Below are positions 24,995 through 32,000 of a DNA stretch of 32,000 nucleotides, piece after piece. Location: assembly GCF_003945235.1 (NCBI RefSeq), contig NZ_RSDW01000001.1:6120257-6152256 (forward strand). The letters are read 5' to 3'. The translations under genes were made by a program, and so were the position numbers. This DNA comes from Edaphobacter aggregans (GTDB lineage Bacteria; Acidobacteriota; Terriglobia; Terriglobales; Acidobacteriaceae). A model generated the notes under the pieces. It saw only the letters and a list, made by a program, of their open reading frames with translations. It made no database searches and was not told where the DNA came from. The number at the start of each line of letters is the position of its first letter. Position 1 is the stretch's first letter.

Positions 24995-25924
24995 TCAGGT
25001 TCCGAAGGTTTGTTGAACGGGTGGAGCGGTGGGGTCTGATTTCTGTTGTACGACCAGCATGTTGGAGGAGATGCCTAGAGGGATTCCTTCTTTCTCGAAG
25101 GCCAGGATGATGCGGCGGCGGAGTTCGCGGAGGACGCCGTCACGCTGGTTGGCACGGACGCGGGTGTTGATGAGGTAGATGATTTCGCGGCCGCGGATGT
25201 CGTTGATGCCGAGGACTTCGGGGTCGGAGATGGTGATGTCCTTGAAGGCGGAGTCCTGGCGGATGTCGGTGGCCAGCTTGCGGAGGACTGCCATGACGGT
25301 GTCGGGGTTGGCGCTGGCGTCGACGCTGACGGAGAGCGAGGCGACGGAGAAGTCGCGGGAGAGATTGGAGACGGTGGCGATCTGACTGTTGGGGATGATG
25401 TAGAGGGTGCCGTCGCCGTCGCGGAGGCGGGTGCTGCGGAGAGAGAGGTCTTCGACGGTGCCCTTGAGGCCGGCGAGGGAGACGGTTTCGCCGACGTTGT
25501 ACTGGTCTTCCATGAGAATGAAGACGCCGTTCAGCATGTCCTTGAAGATGGATTGCGCTCCGAGGCCTATGCCGACGCCGAGAATGCCGGCTGAGGCTAG
25601 TAGCGGCTGATACGGGATGTCAAAGATGTTCAGAACCTGCAGAAAAGAGATGAAGAGGATGAGGCCGTACGCCGTGGCGCGAATAATGGAGGCCATGGTG
25701 CGGAGCTGGGCGGCACGGTGGAAGTTGCCGACCTGCTGATCGGCGCGCTGGCGGAGTCCTTTGACAAAGAACAGGACGACTCGCTGCATGATAAAGAAGA
25801 GGATCAGGACGACGGCGAGCTTGGGTAACTTATCGTGGAAGAAGGAGATTACGTCTTCGCTCCAGTCCTGTCCGATCGTTTTGAAGATGTGTTCACCTTG
25901 CGGGGTCATGGCCAGAAGGAGCAT
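24995..25924 (-). CDS. small-conductance mechanosensitive channel (MscS family)
   Basis: 309 aa with three TM helices, then the MscS signature (AGILGVGIGLGAQSIFKDMLNGVFILMEDQYNVGETVSLAGLKGTVEDLSLRSTRLRDGDGTLYIIPNSQI). Confidence 0.9.
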   Translation of the reverse strand: MLLLAMTPQGEHIFKTIGQDWSEDVISFFHDKLPKLAVVLILFFIMQRVVLFFVKGLRQRADQQVGNFHRAAQLRTMASIIRATAYGLILFISFLQVLNIFDIPYQPLLASAGILGVGIGLGAQSIFKDMLNGVFILMEDQYNVGETVSLAGLKGTVEDLSLRSTRLRDGDGTLYIIPNSQIATVSNLSRDFSVASLSVSVDASANPDTVMAVLRKLATDIRQDSAFKDITISDPEVLGINDIRGREIIYLINTRVRANQRDGVLRELRRRIILAFEKEGIPLGISSNMLVVQQKSDPTAPPVQQTFGT

Positions 25925-26041
25925 GATTGCAATATCTCACTTTCGCGCTTACGTGCTTTGAACAGGATGTGACAGCTTAGAGTTGGATGCAAGGCGGTGC
26001 GGGAGTCATGGGAAGCGCCATTGCGGGCGGGAGGGGGAGCC

Positions 26042-26425
26042 ATGAAAATTCTTCGGGCCGCGATCATGGGGGCTTTACTGTTGACCGGAAGCTCCGTCAT
26101 GTTGCACGGGCAACTGGGAAGGGGTTCGAATCAGACGCAAAACCCTCTGCCTCCGGTTGGCCAGGGCAATATGGGAGGATTGGGTGGGCGTAATGAAGCG
26201 CCGGATCCGCTTGGGCCCCGGATACAGGAGCAGCAGGCCAAGAGTCGGAATAGCGACAGACAGCGGAAATTGGTGGAGGACACCGAACGATTGCTGTCGC
26301 TGGCGGCTGACCTGAAGCAGCAGATGGGTAACACGGGCAAAGATGCTATGTCGGCAGATATGGTCAGGAAGGCCGAAGAGATCGAGAAGTTGGCCAAGAG
26401 CGTGAAGGAACGGATGAAGGGCTAA
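26042..26425 (+). CDS. small secreted protein, paralog 1 of a three-member family (conserved C-terminal helical module)
   Basis: ATG 26042 begins the signal peptide MKILRAAIMGALLLTGSSVMLHGQ. A low-complexity linker follows, then DRQRKLVEDTERLLSLAADLKQQMGNTGKDAMSADMVRKAEEIEKLAKSVKERMKG. The track's upstream start (25997) adds 15 non-signal residues, so I rejected it. Confidence 0.7.
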   Translation: MKILRAAIMGALLLTGSSVMLHGQLGRGSNQTQNPLPPVGQGNMGGLGGRNEAPDPLGPRIQEQQAKSRNSDRQRKLVEDTERLLSLAADLKQQMGNTGKDAMSADMVRKAEEIEKLAKSVKERMKG

Positions 26426-26436
26426 GGGGTTGTGCG

Positions 26437-26844
26437 ATGAAGATGTTTCGAGTGGCGATGTTTGGGGTGGTTTTCGCGGCCAGTAGTTTTGCGGTATCGG
26501 GTTTAGGCCAGGCAACACCGTCTTCGGGGGCACAGGCACAGCAATCGTCTGGGCCGGCGCGGGCGAGCAATGACGCCGCGACTTCAAGCAAGGCAGATGT
26601 GACGACGGCGAGCAAGTCTGGTGGGGCAGATGCAAACGCTCAGGCTGCCGCGGGGGCGCAGCAGGGGACTGACAAACAGAAGAAACTTGCGGCGGATACG
26701 GACAAACTTCTGGCGATGGCTACTGATTTAAAGCAACAGGTGGACAAGACAAATAAAGACGTTTTGTCGGTGGACGTGATCAAAAAAGCAGAAGAGATTG
26801 AGAAGCTGGCGCGGAGTCTGAAACAGGAGATGAAACAGCAGTAG
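26437..26844 (+). CDS. small secreted protein, paralog 2
   Basis: Signal peptide MKMFRVAMFGVVFAASSFAVSGLGQ. An Ala/Ser/Gln-rich linker follows, then DKQKKLAADTDKLLAMATDLKQQVDKTNKDVLSVDVIKKAEEIEKLARSLKQEMKQQ. AAGGGG lies 7 nt upstream of the ATG. Confidence 0.72.
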   Translation: MKMFRVAMFGVVFAASSFAVSGLGQATPSSGAQAQQSSGPARASNDAATSSKADVTTASKSGGADANAQAAAGAQQGTDKQKKLAADTDKLLAMATDLKQQVDKTNKDVLSVDVIKKAEEIEKLARSLKQEMKQQ

Positions 26845-26855
26845 CTCATCCTTTT

Positions 26856-27804
26856 TTACGGTGCTGCGGACGAGGCTTCTGCAGACGTCAGAAGCCACTT
26901 GCCATCTTTTAGCTTGCATGTGTAGTGGACTGTCTTTGGCTTAACCGCTTGTTCGGCTTCTTCGCCAAATCCTTGTGGGCTCATCTGCACGTCGAACGAA
27001 AAAGCCTGTTCACTGACTGTCACTTTGTTGATATCAGTTTCAAATTCATCAGGATTGCAGGAGTGGTTTTCCTGCGCGCACCACTGTGAGGGCAGGTGAT
27101 TTTCAACTCTGCCGAAAACTGTTGGCGCGCCGAATCTGTTTCGTCCGGGAAAATTCGAATCAGTTGTTTTTGCCGAGGATCATAGATGGATAACTTCGCG
27201 GATTGGACCGGATCGAAGTGGATCATGCTTTCTTCGAAGATGATGTTTCCATCGATTTTGCCAACACCCATCCCCATATTCCTGCGCTGAAGGTTAGATC
27301 CGTATTCAAGACCAAGACACATCCGGCGGATGGGTTGATATGCGTGTTGATCGTGATGAATCCGTCTTTTTCTGAGATGTCTTGCGCCGATCCCAGGCAA
27401 TTACTGGAGACCTGTTCCATGATGGTGCTGAAGCCTAGAAACGGAATTTTTGCGCCGTGCAGATCGGCTCGACGAAGTTGATGGATTTGTTCGTCATACC
27501 GGATGACATGCAACACCGATGGCAACCTGCCAGAAGCGTCGTCGTCGTAATAGGCGAGGAGGAATGGGGAGTTGTCAGAAGACACGGCGTAGCTGGTTAT
27601 GGGCTGCTGACGGTCGCTCGCGGAGAAGAGATTTACAGGAATTTTATGGGCGGTTAGAACGTCTGCCAGGGTTTCGGCACGGAGGGGTGTCATGGCGAGA
27701 AGGGCCATTGTTATCAATGCTGATAAGGCGATTCTCAATGCGGTTCCTCTTCGGAGATGATGCATCGAAAGCAGGGTTTTGGCTATTGATGTCTTGCGAA
27801 TCAA
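26856..27804 (-). pseudogene. secreted hypothetical protein gene, apparently interrupted by two single-base frame changes (or assembly errors)
   Basis: Frame A (track ORF 27223..27804) carries a signal peptide and reads as plausible protein up to ...TDLTFSAGIWG. Frame B (track ORF 27020..27400) is protein-like only from ...GMGVGKIDGNIIFEESMIHFDPVQSAKLSIYDPRQKQLIRIFPDETDSARQQFSAEL. A third frame is open from ~27180 to a TAA at 26856-26858. My translation of it is ...NHLPSQWCAQENHSCNPDEFETDINKVTVSEQAFSFDVQMSPQGFGEEAEQAVKPKTVHYTCKLKDGKWLLTSAEASSAAP. The junctions fall at a coding-strand GGGG run (27272-27275) and an AAAA run (27090-27093). 949 nt plus 2 gives 951, which is 317 codons. Confidence 0.45.
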
Positions 27805-27923
27805 GTTGGCTAACTGGTGTCGGTCGGAACGACTTGCGCAGAAGGGAGGAGAAGGAGTACAAGGGTTCGGCTTCGGGCGGACCTATATAGCCGCAGGGGC
27901 CCAGGAAGGGCTGGTGCAGGGCA

Positions 27924-28277
27924 ATGCTTCGAGCAGGTTTAACCGTTTTAGTACTGTGGATTGTGATGTCAGCGACGGGCTGGGGACAAGCGGCACAACA
28001 GGCGGAGCAGAGGGTGGTGGAGTCTCCGCAATCGATACAACATCCGCGATCTGGATTTTATGGGCACAGTTTTGTCGCCCAGCAGAAGGCGATGCGGAAT
28101 ATCGAGAGACAGGACAAGCTTGTTAACGATACGAACAAGTTGCTGGCGTTGGTGGCCAACTTCAATCAGACGGCAAATAAGAGTGGTACCGAGTTGTCGT
28201 CTGCAGATATGGCGAAGCGGGTTGAGGAGATTGAGAAGTTGGCGCGTAGTGTGAAGGAACGGATGCTCAAGGAATAG
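27924..28277 (+). CDS. small secreted protein, paralog 3
   Basis: Signal peptide MLRAGLTVLVLWIVMSATGWGQ, then ...ERQDKLVNDTNKLLALVANFNQTANKSGTELSSADMAKRVEEIEKLARSVKERMLKE. It shares an identical 15-nt string GTGAAGGAACGGATG with paralog 1 (26402-26416 vs 28251-28265). Confidence 0.72.
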   Translation: MLRAGLTVLVLWIVMSATGWGQAAQQAEQRVVESPQSIQHPRSGFYGHSFVAQQKAMRNIERQDKLVNDTNKLLALVANFNQTANKSGTELSSADMAKRVEEIEKLARSVKERMLKE

Positions 28278-28317
28278 GGCCCAGGAAGCGGGAATAGGAG
28301 CAACGGAACGGCGCTTA

Positions 28318-29937
28318 TCAGGGTTGGGCCAGGGCTGCGGTGGCGTCTACCTGCGGGACGGGTAATTGAGGGGATGGGACGGCGGTTGAGCGCATGACGC
28401 TGATGATGTGGTCTGCACTCCAGGTGGGGTGGGCGGCTCGGAGCAGGGCGGCGACTCCGGCGGCGAGAGGGGCGGAGGCGCTGGTGCCGATGGCCTGGAC
28501 GTAGGGTGTGTGGCCGAGATTGAAGCATCCGTAGCTGTGGGCGGAGTCTGTTGGTGGTCCGTCGGTTGTAGACGGGTTTCCTGAGCTGCAGGCGCCGCGT
28601 ACCCATCCGCTGACGGCCAGGTCTGTGCCTGAGGGGTAGCTCCCGCCGGGCGCGGCCAGGGCGTTGAGAGGGGTTCCGTGGTTGCTGTAGTAGGGGAGCG
28701 AGATGGGGCCAGGGGTGCAGGTGGCTCCGGCAGAGAGATTTTCGACGCAGGCTGGGTTGGTGGATGCGACGATGGCGAGGACGTTGCGGGATTGGGCGGG
28801 GATCTCCAGGTAGCGAGGGTTGGAGAGGTCGTAGCCGTCGTTGCCGGCTGCGGCGATGAGGATGACTCCGGCTTGGGAGGCAGCGTAGGTGACTTGATCG
28901 AAGACGGCTTTGAGACCTGCGCCGTCCCCGGTGCTGAGGTCGACGATGGTGCCGAGTGAGAGGGAGATGATGTCGGCGCGGTTGGTAACGGCGTCTTCGA
29001 TACCTTGCATGACCCAGCTGAGGAGGCCGGTGGCTTCTCCTGCGGTGCAGCTTGCGGCGAGGGTGCTGGTGCCTGCGATGGAGGCTGGGAGGCGTTCGAG
29101 GACCTTGATGTTGAGGAGGGTTGCGGCAGGGGCGACTCCTATGACCTGCCCGGTGCCGGGACCGATGGCGGCGGCGGCGAGAGAGGCGGTCCAGGTGCCA
29201 TGGCCGGTTTGATCTTGCGGGCTGCCGTCGTCGCAGGAGCTTGGTAGCGCGGATGGATCGACTTCGCTGAGGTTGAGGGCGAGGTTGGGGGCGATGTCGG
29301 GATGGTTGGCGTCGACGCCGCTGTCGAGGATGGCGATGCGGACGCCTTTGCCCATGGTGGTGTTCCAGGGGCCGTTGGAGGGGCCGCCGGGGACGTTATT
29401 GCCGTAGCCGCCCACCTGCTGGACGGCCCAATCCTGAGGCGAGGTGTAGTAGGTGTCGTAGGGCGCCTGCGGGCCGATGACTACGCTGAAGGTGGGGTGC
29501 AGGATGGGCTGGATGTGGAGGCGGTGGGCGGTGACGAGGCGGTCGTGGAGGACGTATTCGACGTTGGGCTGGGCGGCGAGCCGACGCATGGTGGTTGCGT
29601 CGTCTTCGGTGCTGAGGGACTGGGCGGCGATGATACCGAAGTGCGGATTGCGTTGGGTGAGGCGCGCTCCTGCAGAGAGGGTGCGGGTTTCGGCGTCGGC
29701 TGGGACGACGGCGTTTCGGTAGACGACGAGATAGTGGTGGGGGACGATGGGGCTTGGCTGGGCATTCTGCGCGTGAAGAGATGCGGCCAGGGCGAGGGAG
29801 AGAATCGCTGCTGCCTGTTTGAGCCACCGGGTCGGCGCGGTATCGTATTGCAACTGGGGCGAATATCGACGAGCGGACTGGGATGGGATGAGAGTGGACA
29901 CGGCAGCACCTCGGAGTAATTGCACTGGTGTCTGCAT
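28318..29937 (-). CDS. secreted subtilisin-like serine protease (peptidase S8) with inhibitor-I9 propeptide
   Basis: 539 aa. Catalytic contexts are Asp (VRIAILDSGVDANHPDI), His (DQTGHGTWTASLAAA), Asn (IAAAGNDG) and Ser (AIGTSASAPLAAGVAALL). An I9-like propeptide is present (HYLVVYRNAVVP...MRRLAAQPNVEYVLHDRLV). The exact start is uncertain: the hydrophobic signal segment begins ~40 residues after the ATG, and an in-frame TTG lies closer to it. Confidence 0.9.
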   Translation of the reverse strand: MQTPVQLLRGAAVSTLIPSQSARRYSPQLQYDTAPTRWLKQAAAILSLALAASLHAQNAQPSPIVPHHYLVVYRNAVVPADAETRTLSAGARLTQRNPHFGIIAAQSLSTEDDATTMRRLAAQPNVEYVLHDRLVTAHRLHIQPILHPTFSVVIGPQAPYDTYYTSPQDWAVQQVGGYGNNVPGGPSNGPWNTTMGKGVRIAILDSGVDANHPDIAPNLALNLSEVDPSALPSSCDDGSPQDQTGHGTWTASLAAAAIGPGTGQVIGVAPAATLLNIKVLERLPASIAGTSTLAASCTAGEATGLLSWVMQGIEDAVTNRADIISLSLGTIVDLSTGDGAGLKAVFDQVTYAASQAGVILIAAAGNDGYDLSNPRYLEIPAQSRNVLAIVASTNPACVENLSAGATCTPGPISLPYYSNHGTPLNALAAPGGSYPSGTDLAVSGWVRGACSSGNPSTTDGPPTDSAHSYGCFNLGHTPYVQAIGTSASAPLAAGVAALLRAAHPTWSADHIISVMRSTAVPSPQLPVPQVDATAALAQP

Positions 29938-30121: not shown

Positions 30122-32000
30122 ATGTACGTAGTAAGCCTTCTGGCTATAGCCGTTCAGGAACAAGTTCCCTTTACACCTGCAAGTGCTGATGATGGGCGGA
30201 TGTGGCTGTGGATTGCGCTGGGCGTCGGGGTATTGGCGCTGGGAGCGGCGCTGATGCTGGCGCGTGCTGTGATTGCGGCGGATACGGGAACGGCTGACAT
30301 GCGGGCGATTTCGGATGCGATCCGCGAAGGGGCCGAGGCGTTTTTGAAGAGGCAGTACAGGACGATCGGCGCGATTGCTGTCGTGCTGGCTGTGCTGCTG
30401 TTCTTTGGGTATCACCTGTCGCCCAGGACGGCGCCGTTTGCGCTGAAGACGGTGGTGAGCTTTCTGATGGGTGCGGTGTGCTCGGCTCTGGCAGGGTATA
30501 CAGGGATGTACTGCTCGATACGTGCGAACATACGAACGGCTTCGGCGGCGCGTACGAGTTTGAATGATGCACTACGAATGGCGTTGCATGGCGGTGCGGT
30601 TACGGGGCTTGTGGTCGTGGCGCTATCGCTCCTTGGCGTGGGTGTGCTGTTCCTATTCTTCGGTGGGCTGGAGAATCCTCAGGCGGTGCCATATCAGCTG
30701 GTTGGCTTTGGATTCGGGGCTTCGCTTGTGGCGCTGTTTGCTCAGTTGGGCGGCGGAATTTATACGAAGGCTGCGGATGTCGGTGCTGACCTTGTCGGCA
30801 AGGTGGAGGCCGGGATTCCGGAGGATGATCCGAGGAATCCGGCGGTGATTGCGGACCTGGTGGGCGACAATGTTGGCGACTGTGCGGGTCGCGGCGCTGA
30901 CTTGTTTGAGTCGACTGCAGCGGAGAATGTGGGCGCAATGATTCTGGGCGCTGCGCTGTATCCGGTGTTCGGGGTGAAAGGGATTTTGTTTCCGCTGATC
31001 GTTCATGCGATCAACTTGATTGCGAGCACGGTGGGCGTATTTGTGGTGAAGACACGCGAAGATGAAGACCCGATGCATGCTTTGAACAAAGGGTTCTACG
31101 TGACTTCGGCGCTGGCGTTGGCGGGCTTTGCGGTTGCTGTGTACACGATGCTGAATGGGCCACTAGTGCAGCCGTTGTGGCTGCTCGGCTGCGGCGTGAT
31201 CGGTTTGGGTACGGCGTTTTTATTTGTGTGGATTACGGAGTACTACACGGAGTCGAGGTATCGGCCGGTGAAGTCGATTGCCGAGGCTTCACTGACTGGC
31301 CCGGCGACGAATATCATCAGCGGGCTTGCGGTTGGTATGGAGACACCGGCGGCTCCTGTGCTGGTGATATCGGCGGCGTTGCTGCTGAGCTACTACTTTG
31401 GCGTGCAAGGGTTGGCGAATGTTGCTGGCATCAGCGATTATGCGAAGGGCATTTATGGCACGGCGATCGCCACGATGGGAATGCTGAGTTGCGCGGCTTA
31501 CATTCTGGCGATGGATACGTTTGGACCGATTACGGATAACGCAGGCGGCATTATCGAGATGTCGCATCAACCGCATGAGATTCGTGAGCGGACGGACAAG
31601 CTGGATTCGGCGGGGAATACGACCAAGGCGCTGACGAAGGGGTATGCGATTGGTTCGGCTTCGCTGGCGGCGTTTCTGCTGTTTTCTGCGTATCTTGAAC
31701 AGATCAAGACAATTGTGACCGATAAGGTTGCACATGCTGGCGGTTACATGCCACAGGGGTGGAGCTTTACGAATATCAATCTGGCGCAGATTCCTGTGTT
31801 TGTCGGTGCACTGTTGGGTGCGATGTTGACATATCTGTTTAGCTCGCTGGCCATCAAGGCGGTGGGGCGGACGGCGCAGATGGTTGTGCAGGATGTGCGG
31901 GCGCAGTTCAAGGAGAATCCCGGGATCATGGAGGGAACTTCGAAGCCGGACTATGCTCGGTGCGTCCATATTGTGACGGGCGCGGCGCTGAAGGAGATGG
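30122..32000 (+). CDS. hppA: membrane-bound proton-translocating pyrophosphatase (H+-PPase), 5' partial gene running off the window
   Basis: Not in the ORF track because it has no stop in the window. My own translation gives ...MWLWIALGVGVLALGAALMLARAVIAADTGTADMRAISDAIREGAEAFLKRQYRTI... It continues GFGFGASLVALFAQLGGGIYTKAADVGADLVGKVEAGIPEDDPRNPAVIADLVGDNVGDCAGRGADLFES... and then DTFGPITDNAGGI...DSAGNTTKALTKGYAIGSA. GNTTKA with Lys is the K+-independent signature. AAGGAG lies 8 nt upstream of ATG 30122. An alternative start is ATG 30200. Confidence 0.93.
   Translation, partial: MYVVSLLAIAVQEQVPFTPASADDGRMWLWIALGVGVLALGAALMLARAVIAADTGTADMRAISDAIREGAEAFLKRQYRTIGAIAVVLAVLLFFGYHLSPRTAPFALKTVVSFLMGAVCSALAGYTGMYCSIRANIRTASAARTSLNDALRMALHGGAVTGLVVVALSLLGVGVLFLFFGGLENPQAVPYQLVGFGFGASLVALFAQLGGGIYTKAADVGADLVGKVEAGIPEDDPRNPAVIADLVGDNVGDCAGRGADLFESTAAENVGAMILGAALYPVFGVKGILFPLIVHAINLIASTVGVFVVKTREDEDPMHALNKGFYVTSALALAGFAVAVYTMLNGPLVQPLWLLGCGVIGLGTAFLFVWITEYYTESRYRPVKSIAEASLTGPATNIISGLAVGMETPAAPVLVISAALLLSYYFGVQGLANVAGISDYAKGIYGTAIATMGMLSCAAYILAMDTFGPITDNAGGIIEMSHQPHEIRERTDKLDSAGNTTKALTKGYAIGSASLAAFLLFSAYLEQIKTIVTDKVAHAGGYMPQGWSFTNINLAQIPVFVGALLGAMLTYLFSSLAIKAVGRTAQMVVQDVRAQFKENPGIMEGTSKPDYARCVHIVTGAALKEM

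Follow-up and report, generated by a model that had tools for sequence, protein, structure and literature searches.

Which function do the small secreted proteins serve that Edaphobacter aggregans encodes in three neighbouring copies, and are they peculiar to this strain? The question arises from a 32,000-nucleotide stretch of the genome (RefSeq assembly GCF_003945235.1, contig NZ_RSDW01000001.1, positions 6,120,257 to 6,152,256), which is called the window below. An earlier sequence-only reading of the window had described three open reading frames, here termed genes A, B and C, as paralogues made of a signal peptide, a low-complexity linker and a conserved C-terminal block of 56 residues. 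As judged from sequence comparison, the three genes belong to a large, undescribed family of exported proteins, with good claims to recognition as a new domain family. Its role is discussed below, tentatively, in terms of the envelope of these bacteria.

Three paralogous genes

The three open reading frames are found on the plus strand exactly where they had been reported (Table 1), and BLASTP confirms their paralogy, with E values of 1e-23 for A and B, 6e-21 for A and C, and 9e-16 for B and C. The earlier estimate of 30 to 32 identical positions in the 56-residue block holds for A and B (32) and for A and C (30), but is too high for B and C, which share only 25. The EEIEKLA(K/R)S core is invariant in the three copies, as claimed, and R73, Q74, D80, T81, L84, L87, E113-A118 and M125 are present in all of them. 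Gene C is the most divergent of the paralogues, with the replacements L91F, K92N and V95A and the C-terminal end MLKE instead of MKG. The predicted mature proteins of about 11 kDa are basic (isoelectric point 8.9-9.7) and very hydrophilic, with a grand average of hydropathy (GRAVY) of -0.8 to -1.1.

Full-length dN/dS ratios between A, B or C and their orthologues in four genomes range from 0.10 to 0.33 (0.10-0.22 for B). By this measure, purifying selection acts on each of the three genes, and together with the BLASTP results it characterises A, B and C as true paralogues and functional genes. Gene A, which is preceded by a GGAGG Shine-Dalgarno sequence, corresponds to GenBank RSL19485.1 / WP_125487702.1 ("hypothetical protein EDE15_5154", Edaphobacter aggregans). 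Since gene B starts only 11 nt past the stop codon of gene A, the two are probably co-transcribed. The GenBank version of gene C (RSL19489.1, EDE15_5158; 103 aa), likewise named no more than "hypothetical protein", starts at Met15 and has thus lost most of the signal peptide.

Table 1. Genes, gene parts and other features of the window
Feature	Position	Strand	Remarks
Small MscS-type mechanosensitive channel gene	24995..25924	-	309 aa; Pfam MS_channel_2nd, 2.7e-20; divergent from gene A
Intergenic region shared by MscS and gene A	25925..26041		117 nt; nucleotide blocks conserved across genera
Block ATCTCACTTTCGC	25933-25946		adjoins the MscS start
Block TTGAACAGGATG-N-TTGGATGCAAGG	25958-25994		promoter-like, TGAACA-N18-T[AT][AG]GAT
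Gene A	26042..26425	+	127 aa
Gene A, signal peptide	26042-26110	+	cleavage between HG and Q; followed by a disordered linker
Gene A, hairpin module	26222-26422	+
Gene B	26437..26844	+	135 aa
Gene B, signal peptide	26437-26508	+	cleavage between LG and Q; followed by an A/S/Q/T-rich linker
Gene B, module	26638-26841	+
Pseudogene	26856..27804	-	two frameshifts; tblastn frames -3, -2, -1, E 1e-95, against an intact 292-aa signal-peptide protein
Direct repeat GGGCCCAGGAAG	27897-27908 and 28277-28288		12 nt, exact; brackets gene C
Gene C	27924..28277	+	117 aa
Gene C, signal peptide	27924-27986	+	cleavage between WG and Q
Gene C, module	28071-28274	+
Secreted S8 subtilase gene	28318..29937	-	Pfam Peptidase_S8, 1.5e-41; convergent with gene C
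H+-translocating pyrophosphatase gene	30200..32000	+	continues beyond the window end

A large family in Terriglobia

When 90%-identity clusters were searched with a profile of the three modules, 1,437 proteins were retrieved, all of them without a Pfam domain. HMMER, run exhaustively on 1.84 billion representatives clustered at 50% identity, gave 3,944 matches at E <= 1e-3, of which 1,799 reached E <= 1e-10, and in the 150 of the 3,944 that were listed, the module is nearly always found at the C-terminus of a protein of 74-204 aa. At least 6,857 further 90%-identity clusters were added by a second profile, for which distant members served as input, and Ca. Sulfotelmatobacter, Ca. Angelobacter and "Acidobacteriia" are among their names. 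In a collection with one genome per species, a relative is encoded by at least 449 stretches. Of these, 80 loci were kept, and they come from Acidobacteriaceae (Edaphobacter, Granulicella, Terriglobus, Tunturiibacter and Silvibacterium), save for two contigs of metagenome-assembled genomes that are labelled Sphingomonas and Rhodanobacteraceae (L059 and L072). Both show the gene order of Acidobacteriaceae (DUF255, MscS, family gene, S8), and are therefore probably mis-binned. Among the members listed, the family thus appears confined to the class Terriglobia, namely to Acidobacteriaceae, Ca. Sulfotelmatobacter and Ca. Angelobacter. The most distant of the 3,944 matches lie outside the inspected set, and rare fusions or members from outside Acidobacteriota may occur there. 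With thousands of members in Terriglobia, conservation extends far beyond the strain.

Chance open reading frames or a strain-specific artefact were also considered as an explanation for the three genes, and were ruled out by the BLASTP matches between the paralogues, the size of the family and the dN/dS ratios.

The sequence-only reading could not place the module in any family, and the searches agree. Pfam (with A, B and C, and then with 64 members singly), NCBIfam, PADLOC and PHROGs gave no match at the cut-off or recurring across members. The best hit of a sequence-profile search of the PDB was a designed four-helix bundle (E 0.09), and Foldseek found nothing in the PDB at E <= 0.001, the best match being de novo designed hairpins (E 0.74). 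Literature searches for Acidobacteria with mechanosensitive channels, for Edaphobacter aggregans and for the peptide motifs returned nothing on the family. Database entries are named "hypothetical protein" or carry scattered JGI names (NorD-like, VasF, TolA-binding), which are mutually inconsistent and were therefore treated as spurious. Many public gene calls begin at a Met just before the module and yield 67-aa "proteins". Due to such miscalled start sites, in gene C as well as in metagenome genes, the export signal of the family is hidden in the databases.

Architecture and conservation

The three-part organisation recurs throughout the family. In practically all full-length homologues, the N-terminus consists of a positively charged n-region and a hydrophobic core, as expected for a signal peptide, and in 122 of 149 members the core is directly followed by [small]-x-[A/G/S] and then Q. 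This motif fits a signal peptidase I site with Gln at +1, a residue that could cyclise to pyroglutamate, and the signal peptides of A, B and C end in G-Q, as had been noted. P, G, Q, S and A are frequent in the linker, which is 17-82 aa long with a median of 36. For the module, AlphaFold2 predicts a pair of helices with a loop of 7 residues between them (pLDDT 77). For full-length A, the prediction consists of helix 2-19 (the signal peptide), disorder from 20 to 57 (pLDDT below 50), and helices 58-97 and 105-126, in agreement with the low-complexity linker and the two C-terminal helices of the sequence-only reading. According to this model and the conservation pattern, the module is a slowly evolving antiparallel two-helix hairpin of about 65 aa.

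Among 146 distinct members, the core motif is [ED]-E-I-E-K-L-A-[HKR]-S. R73, L84, L87, I114, E115, L117 and A118 are conserved in all of them, and D80, T81, L91, E113, K116, V121 and M125 in at least 97%. The protein ends 0-3 residues past M-K-G. Hydrophobic residues form a heptad seam along both helices (L77, L84, L87/A88, L91 and V95 in the first; V107, A111, I114, A118, V121 and M125 in the second), and the heptads together with the extra hydrophobic residues that flank them fit a hairpin that packs against further helices. In addition, many polar positions of the helices are near-invariant (R73, Q74, D80, T81, E113, E115, K116 and K122), which suggests a specific partner or ligand.

In view of the composition of the proteins, one may ask whether they act as non-specific periplasmic protectants of the envelope against desiccation or acid, in the manner of hydrophilins and late embryogenesis abundant (LEA) proteins or of Asr and HdeA. 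The low GRAVY values, the long disordered segment and the Gly content of A (11.5%, at a GRAVY of -1.10) would be in line with this role, as would the hosts, which are soil and peat acidophiles according to the record titles, and the ion and osmolyte transporters (MscS and the H+-pyrophosphatase) in the neighbourhood. However, the near-invariance of many surface polar residues across an entire class would be unexpected for a bulk protectant, B (Gly 5.4%, GRAVY -0.80) and C (3.1%, -0.81) fall below the hydrophilin criterion of more than 6% Gly, and the LEA and HdeA Pfam domains have no match in A, B, C or the 64 members searched. We therefore consider a protectant role unlikely.

History of the copies

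A single copy is present at 155 of 166 loci, two copies at 8 and three at 3. A neighbour-joining tree of the modules has a C-type clade with copies from the window, L005 and L020, a B-type clade with copies from these three and from L011, and an A-type clade with copies from the window, L004, L005 and L011. The first copy of L020 groups with the single-copy orthologues of other Edaphobacter-like genomes, and gene A occupies the MscS-adjoining slot, which in most genomes is taken by the single copy. As the A-, B- and C-type clades are common to several species, the duplications predate these species. The tree thus indicates that the triplication results from two older duplications, common to at least three species, and that the extra copies were kept in this Edaphobacter lineage. 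Separate tandem duplications are found in L019, L030 and L037. The local amplification proposed in the sequence-only reading is real in that three copies are present, but it is not recent, and the family is no local oddity.

The "broken secreted-protein gene" between B and C also exists, as seen from a three-frame alignment to an intact counterpart (Table 1). In L003 and L005, the B and C orthologues are separated by the intact gene (positions 6938-7816 in L003), and a related sequence is present between them in L020. Pfam assigned no family to the intact protein.

The direct repeat that brackets gene C may be the scar of a duplication or insertion, or may have arisen by chance.

Gene neighbourhood

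The genes of the window are arranged in the order TolC-like (+), DUF255 thioredoxin (+), AAA_28 (+), MscS (-), A (+), B (+), pseudogene (-), C (+), S8 subtilase (-) and H+-pyrophosphatase (+). The sequence-only reading had drawn attention to the protease, but the constant neighbour proved to be the MscS gene. It lies upstream and divergent at 69 of 74 genome loci, as opposed to 39 of 74 with a downstream, convergent S8 gene; at metagenome loci the counts are 30 of 51 and 4 of 36. The S8 protease is thus a frequent, not a constant neighbour. DUF255 is found upstream at 43 of 70 genome and 8 of 29 metagenome loci, and a H+-pyrophosphatase within 4 kb at 32 of 67 and 4 of 19, respectively. A Rho gene directly upstream on the same strand (17 of 51) and a Fur-family gene downstream (13 of 36) were detected at metagenome loci, and were not found at genome loci.

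The immediate vicinity of the S8 gene, convergent with the family gene in the window and in the 39 Acidobacteriaceae loci, could be taken to mean that the small proteins are inhibitors, chaperones or substrates of the protease. We regard this as very improbable, because the S8 gene is not beside the family gene in nearly half of the Acidobacteriaceae loci and in 32 of 36 metagenome loci, because the convergent orientation does not allow co-transcription, and because known subtilase propeptides and inhibitors have alpha/beta folds and are not helical hairpins.

In Sulfotelmatobacter-like genomes, the order is Rho (+), MscS (-) at some loci and not at others, and the family gene (+), followed either by Fur (+) or by the H+-pyrophosphatase (-). 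MscS proteins from these loci are 36-40% identical to MscS of the window. Over the same distance, the widest compared, the family module is more conserved, with about 46-61% identity in a position-by-position hand count. The MscS pair persists where DUF255 and S8 are replaced by Rho and Fur, and also at locus L085, where Cupin and DinB genes follow downstream. The usual state of the family is therefore a single copy back-to-back with a small MscS gene, the sole adjacency that is common to otherwise differing neighbourhoods. The module subtype is the same at loci with and without MscS, and the "RNxxRQ" start of helix 1 tracks lineage and not the MscS neighbour. The H+-pyrophosphatase gene recurs within 4 kb of the family gene in both Acidobacteriaceae and Sulfotelmatobacter-like genomes.

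In the Ca. Sulfotelmatobacter-like loci L167-L171, the trio of Rho (+), family gene (+) and H+-pyrophosphatase (-) is fixed, and the outer flanks vary.

The whole window (1-32000) contains 11,987 G and 6,778 C, an extreme GC skew of about +0.28 that does not depend on gene orientation. In plus-strand genes, G makes up 0.39-0.57 of the third codon positions, and in the two long minus-strand genes (MscS and S8) C makes up 0.66 of them. A similar strand asymmetry was seen at several other Acidobacteriaceae loci. A literature search on this asymmetry found nothing.

Intergenic region and expression

The start codons of the MscS and family genes are typically about 110 nt apart (median; 117 nt for gene A). 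K-mer enrichment and an alignment of 34 loci identified conserved blocks in the intervening DNA of Acidobacteriaceae (Table 1): CTCGCTTT occurs in 42 loci, against 0.5 expected, and GATGCAAT in 32, against 0.3 expected. The blocks could be overlapping promoters or an operator. The DNA for the N-terminal tail of MscS is strongly conserved in the aligned loci as well.

The intergenic blocks GTCTCGCTTTCGG and GAACAGAATGC...TAAGATGCAAT include a (G/A)ATGC direct repeat with a spacing of about 21 nt, in the window and in the L004-L076 equivalents.

At Sulfotelmatobacter-like loci, a perfect TATAAT is present 30-40 nt upstream of the family start codon, with or without MscS. As the Rho gene is followed by a hairpin and a T-run, and the family gene is preceded by this TATAAT, the latter should have its own promoter. 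A second TATAAT is located on the opposite strand, just before MscS. Judging by these elements, expression of the family looks like that from ordinary sigma-70-type promoters, and not like that from an obvious stress promoter of the extracytoplasmic function (ECF) type. In the region 25800-28400 of the window, the promoter search returned just two weak minus-strand matches at chance level, and no terminators were found. A scan of the window against Rfam detected no RNA element.

At L147, L151, L161, L145 and similar loci, the MscS gene carries a conserved GCGCGATTATAACAAG block. On the MscS strand of these loci, no more than about 14 nt separate TTATAAT from the start codon, so that the mRNA may be almost without a leader.

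The arrangement invites the idea that the family protein works in the periplasm as a specific partner or regulator of the MscS channel encoded beside it, with the hairpin docking on the channel's periplasmic N-terminal tail, on its TM2-TM3 loop or on the surrounding outer leaflet, and thereby tuning the gating. MscS is the most constant neighbour over deep divergence, the putative divergent promoters overlap within the short distance between the genes, and the conservation of the DNA for the N-terminal tail would also be explained. Nevertheless, at the 17 metagenome loci with Rho the latter, and not MscS, is directly upstream, and the module subtype is unchanged. Moreover, we know of no soluble periplasmic subunit or partner of a MscS-family channel that has been described. 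A dedicated MscS regulator thus seems a rather doubtful proposition.

Proposed role

The reading that we prefer, though without deeming it probable, is that of a self-associating periplasmic helical-bundle protein with a role, exerted through a conserved partner, in envelope, osmotic or ion homeostasis. Export and cleavage would probably leave an N-terminal pyroglutamate. The hairpin would then self-associate in the periplasm, either to a dimer in the form of a four-helix bundle, or to a higher oligomer. The conserved polar surface would bind a conserved partner or ligand in the envelope, and the disordered linker would provide flexible spacing. Most likely, the protein would be an envelope-homeostasis factor of the Spy/CpxP/ZraP functional type, a chaperone or adaptor with a link to the osmotic or ionic balance. 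The paralogues of E. aggregans may each have become specific for different partners or conditions, or may form hetero-oligomers.

Several points weigh against this proposal. The homology searches point to no activity, the structural similarity to ZraP (3lay; E 2.3, TM 0.62) and CnrX (E 2.5-3), found among the lower Foldseek matches, is not significant, and a two-helix hairpin resembles many things. The consensus promoters of the sigma-70 type give no pointer to a dedicated stress regulon. MscS adjacency is not obligatory, since about a third of the loci outside Acidobacteriaceae have Rho followed by the family gene and lack MscS, and in part it may reflect inherited synteny in a region of the core genome.

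Two more specific roles would go further, but are improbable on present data. The protein could be the soluble periplasmic half of a two-gene module for mechanosensing or osmoprotection, formed with the small MscS, or else the core periplasmic stress chaperone of acidophilic Terriglobia, with an evolutionary origin separate from that of Spy, CpxP and HdeA. In either case, the three paralogues would be specialised or hetero-oligomerising versions.

In soil, Terriglobia rank with the most abundant bacteria, and the majority of the genes conserved in them have never been studied. The family comprises thousands of 50%-identity clusters, is exported and apparently has a strong promoter of its own, yet is missing from Pfam and NCBIfam. 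Its conserved pairing with MscS is a concrete lead into the management of the envelope by these acidophiles, and the retained expansion to three copies offers a natural system to study how copies diverge in function.

Comparison with known systems

The periplasmic N-terminal domain of the large channels MscK and MscM (Pfam MscS_porin) offers a parallel, as a helical part of an MscS-type channel, but the family is encoded by a separate gene beside a small MscS, with which its product would have to associate. Among the matches listed, the module always resides at the C-terminus of a separate open reading frame of 108-204 aa, and is not fused to an MscS pore. MscS_porin has no match in A, B, C or the 64 members, which also argues against the MscS partner model. 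The N-terminal coiled coil of CpoB/YbgF (TolA_bind_tri) is an exported oligomerisation module as well, and one JGI record is named "TolA-binding protein", but the family has neither a TolA_bind_tri match in Pfam nor a tetratricopeptide repeat domain.

HdeA/HdeB and Asr are also small periplasmic proteins, helical or disordered, of acid-exposed hosts, so that a functional analogy is possible. They have no sequence or profile similarity to the family. HdeA consists of four helices with a disulfide, and Asr is wholly disordered and rich in His and Lys, and both features set them apart.

Lpp resembles the family in being a coiled-coil envelope protein with a mature size of about 6-11 kDa and with a Lys close to the C-terminus that matters for function. 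By analogy, the family proteins might be structural elements, tethers or spacers between envelope layers, and their small size, export, helicity, high conservation, probably strong constitutive promoter and the Lys of the M-K-G end could be accommodated in such a model. Unlike Lpp, they lack the lipobox Cys, have a signal peptidase I-type site, and fold as a predicted two-helix hairpin instead of a single helix. The conserved Lys is not terminal, but is followed by G or by G and a variable tail of 1-3 residues, and a cyclised N-terminal Gln could not be cross-linked. A tether of this kind is hence hard to credit.

The closest analogues of the preferred envelope-homeostasis role are Spy, CpxP and ZraP. 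By all sequence measures, the family is not a member of theirs. A, B and C lack the LTxxQ motif, as the sequence-only reading had remarked, and so does the family consensus. The Pfam domains LTXXQ and Metal_resist have no match at E <= 1 in the 64 members. The PDB profile search lists neither Spy nor ZraP at E <= 10, and hhalign assigns probabilities of 0.8% and 0.4% to the alignments of the family profile with E. coli ZraP and Spy. The long disordered N-terminal linker and the absence of conserved His or Cys are further differences. Nonetheless, the family resembles these proteins in its small size and in the predicted Sec-dependent export and antiparallel helical hairpin. Spy, CpxP and ZraP oligomerise and are envelope-stress factors, and the family may, by analogy, work like them.

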